From assembly GCA_045590195.1 (NCBI GenBank), contig JAZNQN010000044.1:19186-83185 (forward strand): a DNA stretch of 64,000 bases, given 5' to 3'. A program made the position numbers and the translations under genes. Positions 1,933-2,410 of this stretch are shown one piece after another. The notes below the pieces were generated by a model. That model made no database searches and was not told where the DNA came from. It saw nothing but the letters and a program-made list of their open reading frames with translations. Origin of the DNA: Clostridia bacterium (GTDB lineage: Bacteria; Bacillota; Clostridia; UMGS1883; UMGS1540). The number at the start of each line of letters is the position of its first letter. Position 1 is the first letter of the stretch.

Positions 1933-1998
1933 GTGTATTAAATTTTGATACGCCTTAAACAAAGAAAAAGACTTTGTCCCACAGTTGAAGATGAAAAA

Positions 1999-2035
1999 AT
2001 GTGGTCAAACTCGTTTTTTTGACATTTTTTTAGAC
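1999..2035. repeat. Repeat module A (ATGTGGTCAAA...TTGAC...TTTTTTTAG), degenerate copy of module B
   Basis: The exact 11-mer ATGTGGTCAAA (1999-2009) recurs at 2203-2213. Both copies are followed by TTGAC, a T7 run and AG. Confidence 0.7.
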
Positions 2036-2042
2036 AAATCAA

Positions 2043-2074
2043 AAACCTCAGAAACCGCTTGGTTACTGAGGTTT
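2043..2074 (-). terminator. Terminator hairpin immediately 3' of tRNA-Pro
   Basis: AAACCTCAG (2043-2051) pairs with CTGAGGTTT (2066-2074). On the minus strand the stem is followed by a U-run (complement of A-run 2041-2045). Confidence 0.6.
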
Positions 2075-2078
2075 AAGG

Positions 2079-2155
2079 TGGTCGGGATGACAGGATTTGA
2101 ACCTGCGGCCTCTTCGTCCCGAACGAAGCGCGCTACCAAACTGCGCTACATCCCG
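2079..2155 (-). tRNA. tRNA-Pro (anticodon CGG), 77 nt with encoded CCA
   Basis: Manual cloverleaf: acceptor CGGGATG/CATCCCG, D-arm GCGC-AGTTTGGTA-GCGC, anticodon arm CTTCG-TTCGGGA-CGAAG, variable loop AGGCC, T-arm GCAGG-TTCAAAT-CCTGT, then A-CCA. Confidence 0.9.
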
Positions 2156-2200
2156 ATATAAAATATTTGGTTTTTTCTATATTCCCGTATCTGTGGGATA

Positions 2201-2248
2201 ACATGTGGTCAAAACTTATTTGACCACATGTATTTTGTTTTTTTAGTC
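2201..2248. repeat. Repeat module B with 12-bp perfect inverted repeat and T-run (terminator-like on the plus strand)
   Basis: ACATGTGGTCAA (2201-2212) / TTGACCACATGT (2220-2231), followed by ATTTTGTTTTTTTAG. It is homologous to module A. Confidence 0.75.
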
Positions 2249-2317
2249 ACCGTAAAGTGGCATTGTTAAAAGGTTTGCGGGAGTTCGGCTGATTACTAAT
2301 GAATTGAATAGTACCGT

Positions 2318-2357
2318 GTCCCGAACGATGCGCGCTACCAAACTGCGCTACACCCCG
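2318..2357 (-). pseudogene. Orphan 5' half of a second tRNA-Pro allele (acceptor 5' strand through anticodon loop)
   Basis: 38 of 40 nt are identical to 2116-2155 of the intact tRNA. The differences are A/T at the anticodon stem and T/C at the acceptor stem. Homology ends at the anticodon loop and no 3' half follows. Confidence 0.8.
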
Positions 2358-2371
2358 TAACAACCTAAATT

Positions 2372-2400
2372 ATTATAGCACAGAGAATACATAAAGTCAA
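2372..2400 (-). promoter_or_regulatory. Near-consensus sigma-A promoter reading into the orphan tRNA half
   Basis: On the minus strand, TTGACT (2400-2395), a 17-nt spacer and TATAAT (2377-2372). The -10 ends about 14 nt upstream of the orphan tRNA 5' end at 2357. Confidence 0.65.
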
Positions 2401-2410
2401 ATATTTTTTT

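Follow-up and report, generated by a model that had tools for sequence, protein, structure and literature searches.

How an intact tRNA gene comes to lie just downstream of the promoter and 5′ half of another copy of itself is the question raised by one end of the window, by which we mean the whole 64-kb stretch of clostridial DNA analyzed here. Read along the minus strand, the locus comprises an SLH-serpin gene with its terminator, a promoter, the 5′ half of a tRNA gene, a 162-nt spacer, a complete tRNA-Pro(CGG) gene, and a hairpin terminator, beyond which lie two tandem tyrosine-recombinase genes, int2 and a partial int1, convergent with the tRNA (Table 1). Because the window edge falls inside int1, the element to which these genes belong runs on leftward of the window. 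GC content is 0.41 over positions 1 to 2000 versus ~0.35 over positions 2001 to 4000. Exact-protein look-ups with the int2, serpin, HtrA, and response regulator products of the window matched no records.

Table 1. Features of the split tRNA-Pro locus (window coordinates)
Feature	Position	Strand	Basis or remark
SLH-serpin gene with its own terminator	4204-2444	-	Host side
Native host promoter of tRNA-Pro(CGG), TTGACT-17-TATAAT with TG motif	2372-2400	-	11 of 12 positions
Orphaned 5′ half (positions 1-40) of native tRNA-Pro(CGG); host side of attL	2318-2357	-	Empty-site homology
Anticodon-loop core TTCGGGA inside the orphan half	2326-2320	-	Sequence
Element arm S, 162 nt, from the crossover to the element tRNA	2156-2317	-	Conservation near related recombinases
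Hairpin at the start of S, TACTA/TAGTA	2313-2309/2298-2294	-	Sequence
Invariant GCCGAAC in S, after the hairpin	2289-2283	-	Junction comparison
Palindromic pair of putative arm-type sites TTTGACCACAT in S	2203-2229	-/+	Motif search
Complete element-borne tRNA-Pro(CGG), replacement copy	2079-2155	-	ARAGORN, Rfam
Terminator hairpin of element tRNA, AAACCTCAG...CTGAGGTTTTT	2041-2074	-	Fold; kept with tRNA in relatives
Third putative arm-type site TTTGACCACAT, downstream of element tRNA	1999-2009	-	Kept in relatives
~40-nt motif TTTTCTTTGTTTAAGGCGTATCAAAATTTAATA	1936-1976		In relatives, repeated across the recombinase module
int2, tyrosine recombinase, 475 aa	462-1889	+	Pfam Phage_integrase 5.8e-26, Phage_int_SAM_3 2.4e-17
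int2 terminator hairpin	1895-1924	+	int2 is convergent with the tRNA
int1, second tyrosine recombinase, C-terminal part	1-495	+	Gene cut by window edge

The only tRNA that ARAGORN calls in the window is the tRNA-Pro(CGG) at 2079-2155 on the minus strand, with an Rfam tRNA score of 69.3 bits. The original prediction, made from the sequence alone, had described this intact gene together with a 40-nt copy of its 5′ half whose homology ends at the anticodon loop. Both statements were confirmed on realignment: positions 2318-2357 and 2116-2155 are identical at 38 of 40 sites, and past position 40 the two are unrelated (ACGGTAC versus GAAGAGG). The differences fall at tRNA position 5 (G in the orphan, A in the intact gene) and position 28 (A versus T), and the 3′ half of the intact tRNA compensates both, through the pairs A5:T68 in the acceptor stem and T28:A42 in the anticodon stem. 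The orphan is therefore another allele rather than the product of a local duplication, as had been claimed, and an unoccupied site in the same species, described below, carries that allele as its native gene. Neither ARAGORN nor Rfam makes a tRNA call on the orphan and the sequence downstream of it, and in the window's type of locus the similarity of the sequence immediately after the break to a tRNA 3′ half is not significant.

A near-consensus promoter had been noted above the orphan, with none comparable above the intact tRNA. This observation stands, as the site at 2400-2372 is the only promoter-like site in the interval 1850-2500, and the spacer contains neither a promoter-like site nor a minus-strand terminator between that promoter and the intact tRNA. 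A module said to occur twice, once on each side of the intact tRNA, needed redrawing: the repeat is genuine, but it is better described as the 11-mer TTTGACCACAT in three copies than as a two-copy module. No other exact copy occurs in the 64 kb, and the three are clustered within 230 nt about the intact tRNA (1999-2009 and 2203-2213 on the minus strand, 2219-2229 on the plus strand), and the last two form a 13-bp palindrome.

Comparison with relatives lacking the insertion, which had been suggested as a check, fixes the insertion point. The closest homologue of the serpin (98% identical) lies on a 3.3-kb metagenome contig, L080 (L numbers designate comparison loci), which aligns to the window at 97.4% from position 4642 down to 2318 and no further. 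There, the same promoter precedes an intact native tRNA-Pro(CGG), CGGGGTGTAGCGCAGTTTGGTAGCGCGCATCGTTCGGGAC GATGAAGTCGCAGGTTCAAATCCTGTCACCCCGACCA, after which come a terminator and a DUF188 gene in convergent orientation; the native 3′ half reads TTCGGGA CGATGAAGTCGCAGGTTCAAATCCTGTCACCCCGACCA and continues into AAAATCGGACAATACC and the DUF188 gene. Since homology ends after tRNA position 40, the orphan is the native 5′ half and the insertion starts at 2317, which agrees with the earlier placement of the right end of the incoming DNA and with the proposal that it splits the native gene. The missing half had been expected to contain CGATG and CACCCCGACCA, and the 3′ half in L080 contains both. 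A second contig of the window's species, L084, is also empty, with the same promoter before an intact native tRNA-Pro(CGG). Nowhere in the 64-kb window is there a match to the native 3′ half, to the DUF188 gene, or to the DNA that lies downstream at the empty site. Gene order around the neighboring DAPDH gene was not conserved, and no empty sites in other hosts were found by that route.

The two empty sites differ in detail. At positions 740-816 of L084, the native tRNA-Pro(CGG) carries T28, as in the element allele (CTTCG), opposite the 3′ strand CGATG, giving a T:T mismatch in the anticodon stem, whereas L080 has A at this position. The T28 of L084 could have been left by an earlier round of integration and excision, or could simply be a SNP. 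L080 in turn repeats 16 nt of the tRNA 3′ end (CCTGTCACCCCGACCA) at 2553-2571, ~180 nt downstream of the native tRNA and before a second terminator, with a stretch between the two resembling the ~40-nt motif of Table 1 (TTGTTTTAAGGCG). This segment is absent from L084 and looks like the remains of another element, one that had targeted this tRNA at its 3′ end.

Both halves of a split gene are retained in L106 (GenBank MT835887.1), a complete relative with 13,235 nt between the host tRNA halves. The order of features is host promoter, orphan 5′ half (2273-2310), spacer with arm sites, complete tRNA-Pro, two recombinases, and ~10 kb of cargo, after which, at 15539, the sequence reads ...TTTTACGG TTCGGGA CCATGAGGCCATGGGTTCAAATCCCGTCACTCCGACCA and runs into a terminator. 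Rejoined, the halves give a tRNA-Pro(CGG) that is accepted by ARAGORN, and the two junctions share a core of approximately GGTTCGGGA. As a separate observation, the replacement tRNA of L106 does not have the anticodon of the gene that it replaced: the element tRNA (2466-2542) reads AGG (loop TTAGGGA), and the split host gene (2273-2310/15539-15585) is CGG.

We therefore propose, with high confidence, that the window contains one end of a genomic island that entered by tyrosine-recombinase integration at the anticodon loop of the host tRNA-Pro(CGG) and brought its own replacement tRNA. Integration would be catalyzed by int1, int2, or both, with the TTTGACCACAT repeats that flank the element tRNA probably serving as arm-type sites for recombinase binding. 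The island's attachment site would have only the loop region (~GGTTCGGGA) in common with the host gene, so that the junction rebuilds no tRNA. The native 5′ half would thus be left behind with its promoter (2400-2318), and the native 3′ half would have been carried to the other end of the island, beyond the left edge of the window. The whole tRNA-Pro(CGG) lying 162 nt inside the island end, in the same orientation, would compensate for the split gene. Its transcription most likely starts at the captured host promoter and yields a long precursor, a read-through made plausible by the lack of any other promoter, or of a terminator, in between. The precursor would then be trimmed by RNase P, and the host would come to depend on the element tRNA. 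An excised circle of such an island would be expected to carry the junction far arm-TTCGGGA-ACGGTACTATTC....

Among its cargo, L106 carries genes for a MobL relaxase, an RHH protein, a Rep-like HTH protein, and a Cro/C1 regulator, with no matches to phage structural proteins. A search of IMG/VR with the element motifs gave no hits, and plasmid and phage collections yielded matches only at the level of the tRNA, save for three unannotated fecal virome scaffolds. Given the relaxase in L106, the lack of phage genes, and the lack of IMG/VR hits, the element family is one of integrative islands, probably mobilizable, rather than of prophages. Cargo in relatives comprises defense, signaling, and surface genes; that of L004 (1961-7561), adjoining the recombinase module, encodes an AbiEii toxin with a MarR-like partner, and an OLD/TOPRIM ATPase with a UvrD helicase (Gabija-like).

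It is conceivable, though on balance unlikely, that the displaced 3′ half and the far attachment site were deleted, later or in the same event, so that excision no longer occurs and the tRNA has become a permanent host gene. Consistent with this, in 12 relatives no displaced half was found in up to 8 kb of sequence leftward of the recombinase module; in L005 the module lies ~170 nt from housekeeping genes; and the related species L016 and L018 have both flanks in common, suggesting old, vertically inherited copies. Against it, L106 retains its 3′ half, the DNA left of the recombinases resembles variable cargo rather than host flank (so that far ends were probably just not reached), and the window's species is polymorphic for the insertion, which argues that the window copy is recent. 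Given L005, some copies may nonetheless have lost their far end. A shorter element was also considered, of ~4.2 kb, bounded by the motif that precedes a gene for a 185-aa protein and with the host 3′ half deleted. This reading was rejected as wrong, or at the least not needed, because the DNA left of the recombinases is common to loci that differ in their host 5′ halves and right flanks (L019 with L020, and L066 with L076), because that DNA is typical cargo, and because L106 spans 13.2 kb and includes the 3′ half. A displaced tRNA fragment marks the far end in L106, L050, and L054.

The island with its own replacement tRNA is also supported by how widely the arrangement recurs. Scanning one genome per species with int2 (475 aa) returned 79 loci, most of them on short-read MAG contigs, many of which break inside the recombinase genes; ~25 of the 79 are 93 to 98% identical to int2 and come from many different Clostridia MAG species. 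In these close loci the same tRNA-Pro(CGG) comes next after the recombinase, sometimes with 1 to 2 kb of variable cargo in between, and then the spacer (85 to 93% identical) and a 5′ half. Spacer S is conserved beside related recombinases in about 30 loci, and the block of spacer, tRNA, and terminator recurs beside such recombinases in more than 30 loci of different Clostridia. Nearly all relatives of at least 72% identity whose contigs reach the site have a tRNA-Pro with an orphan 5′ half ~160 nt upstream, and the same tRNA-Pro and orphan architecture accompanies several recombinases only 53 to 57% identical to that of the window. In more than 20 other host species, the element tRNA is identical to that of the window or differs at one compensated acceptor-stem pair. 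Because spacer and intact tRNA move with the recombinases into many hosts, the intact tRNA belongs to the element as its replacement copy, and the claim that the incoming DNA supplies a whole replacement tRNA is upheld.

The orphan halves, in turn, belong to the hosts. Across loci the break is constant, after TTCGGGAC, and all 29 distinct junctions are broken after TTCGGGA(C). The outermost 5′ half varies by host, with at least 12 orphan alleles, and host-specific promoters are kept upstream of orphans in at least 12 hosts. Changes in the D-stem of the orphans are paired (GCGC/GCGC, GCTC/GAGC, GCCC/GGGC), which indicates that these halves derive from functional host genes. Within the spacer, the stem of the junction hairpin varies by lineage with pairing kept (TACTA/TAGTA, TTGCGA/TCGCAA, GATACT/AGTATC), and the invariant GCCGAAC is complementary to GTTCGG in the anticodon loop of the orphan. 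Together, the hairpin and GCCGAAC suggest that a DNA or RNA structure is conserved at the junction.

Other versions of the target are evident among the relatives. At least four tRNA-Pro versions occur: the split host gene is CGG or TGG, one element tRNA is AGG, and a subgroup targeting Pro(GGG) is classical, with orphan 3′ halves (L050, L054, L068). The tRNA-Pro(TGG) version of the architecture is found in L031, an isolate genome, and in L075 and L104. In L075, ARAGORN calls the orphan and its tail a tRNA, which is suggestive of a vestigial tRNA 3′ half at the start of the spacer in the Pro(TGG) relatives only. A metagenome scan for the promoter-plus-orphan pattern gave no hits, and a scan with the arm motif returned four loci, with no new configuration except L103.

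Several loci record more than one event. L104 (MT839022.1, 3754-4400), L006, L018, L043, and L076 each carry two or three orphan 5′ halves of different alleles, stacked ~190 to 200 nt apart upstream of the intact element tRNA. Such stacks appear to record serial integrations, each into the tRNA of the previous element. The original prediction had offered tandem accretion of two elements as an alternative for the window itself. In such a case, the orphan and spacer would be what an earlier element left behind, and the present one would have restored the gene in the usual manner, with a partial 3′ copy. The stacks do show serial events at this site, and related recombinases also lie beside an uninterrupted tRNA-Pro with no orphan half (L024, L103, L017), a configuration that for L024 and L103 would fit such a history. 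In the window, however, the one orphan has the allele native to that species and is joined directly to the conserved spacer, the 5′ half of the intact tRNA is itself foreign (A5 and T28 versus native G5 and A28), so that the whole gene came in, and spacer and whole tRNA accompany the recombinases across hosts. Accretion is thus borne out in relatives and not needed for the window, where we consider it very improbable. In-place duplication of tRNA-Pro into a tandem pair that then decayed, without any mobile element, would account for the 38 of 40 matching positions, and tandem tRNA genes are common, but the single gene at the empty site L080, the abrupt end of similarity at position 40, and the presence of the same spacer and tRNA in unrelated genomic contexts leave it with practically no credibility.

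In relatives of the island, int1 encodes 386 to 420 aa and is preceded by a gene for a 185-aa protein with Flg_new and DUF6550 domains. In NCBIfam, int1, int2, and the 185-aa protein matched only generic Xer/integron-integrase families, all below threshold. By eye, int2 has an N-terminal AP2-like motif, G.G.I.K..DG.WEGR, that is putatively arm-binding, and a second, similar motif in a C-terminal extension of ~100 aa. The module of 185-aa gene, int1, and int2 is flanked in direct orientation by the ~40-nt motif (TTTTCTTTGTTTAAGGCGTATCA...TTT.ATA), which variable cargo abuts; copies lie at 1936-1976 on the minus strand of the window, at 7996-8018 and 11538-11560 in L005, and at 385-407 in L054. 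In L076 the motif copies are conserved, and the enclosed recombinase is only 53% identical to that of the window, compared with 93% for tRNA and spacer, so a swap of the module at the ~40-nt motif seems to have taken place. A two-site cassette exchange by both recombinases was considered, with no evidence found in its support.

Islands with a replacement tRNA-Pro are common in gut and rumen Clostridia. If the island reading is right, non-restoring integration into a tRNA gene with a carried replacement extends from actinobacteriophages to non-phage islands. They would provide a route for the horizontal replacement of a core tRNA allele across species, and their stacked orphans preserve the history of successive invasions. 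Software for finding islands that expects a rebuilt tRNA and a 3′ fragment would misplace the boundary by ~240 nt and might call the orphan a pseudogene. We speculate, as a possibility that we hold at rather less than even, that non-phage islands in gut Clostridia spread by overwriting a core tRNA gene. The resident tRNA-Pro would be silenced and the island allele placed under the host promoter, making the island hard to lose. Successive invaders would strike the tRNA of the previous invader and stack the orphans, with the result that one element allele is now the working gene in many species.

The closest described system to the island is the tRNA-dependent lysogeny of actinobacteriophages, described for some phages of mycobacteria, such as Fionnbharth, LeBron, and Gaia, among others (Guerrero-Bustamante and Hatfull 2024; PMC10865867). 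In these phages, a tyrosine integrase uses an attB within a host tRNA gene, the common core measures 8 to 17 bp, integration leaves the host tRNA unrestored, and lysogens need a cognate tRNA from the phage to survive (PMC10865867). The window's island likewise has its attachment site inside a host tRNA gene, broken after position 40, with a short common core and no functional tRNA at the junction; it carries a cognate tRNA, and close relatives that rebuild the gene exist. In contrast to those phages, it shows no sign of being a temperate phage (MobL relaxase in L106, no phage genes), its hosts are Clostridia rather than Actinobacteria, and it has two tandem recombinases and a 185-aa protein. 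Between its tRNA and the crossover lie 162 nt; the tRNA runs in the direction of the captured host promoter upstream of it and has putative arm-type sites on both sides. Orphan 5′ halves also stack. A possible case outside the Actinobacteria that does not rebuild the tRNA and encodes a cognate tRNA is Lj965 of Lactobacillus johnsonii (PMC10865867). By its description it resembles the island in its Firmicute host, its non-restoring integration into a tRNA gene, and its element-borne cognate tRNA, and it differs in being a prophage.

Classical tRNA islands (the sublocation class of Williams 2002; Islander, PMC4383910) share with the window's island the crossover at the anticodon loop and the recombinase genes near the tRNA, and with its relatives L106, L050, and L054 a displaced tRNA fragment that marks the far end. 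Such islands carry only the 3′ part of the gene and regenerate their target, whereas the window's island lacks a regenerating segment, or retains only a vestige of one, and supplies the whole gene instead. Instead of a rebuilt gene, the junction in the window is a 5′ half followed by ACGGTAC..., which is not a tRNA, and the fragment beside the element tRNA is likewise a 5′ half. Integrative mobilizable elements have their own integration module and a relaxase or oriT but lack genes for a conjugative pore; of these traits, the recombinases are present in the window, and the MobL relaxase is seen in the relative L106 only. Tn554-like transposons also have two tandem tyrosine recombinases and a small protein, are defined by TnpA/TnpB/TnpC homologues, and insert without flanking repeats at att554-like sites; unlike insertions of that type, the two junctions of L106 have a core in common inside the tRNA gene.
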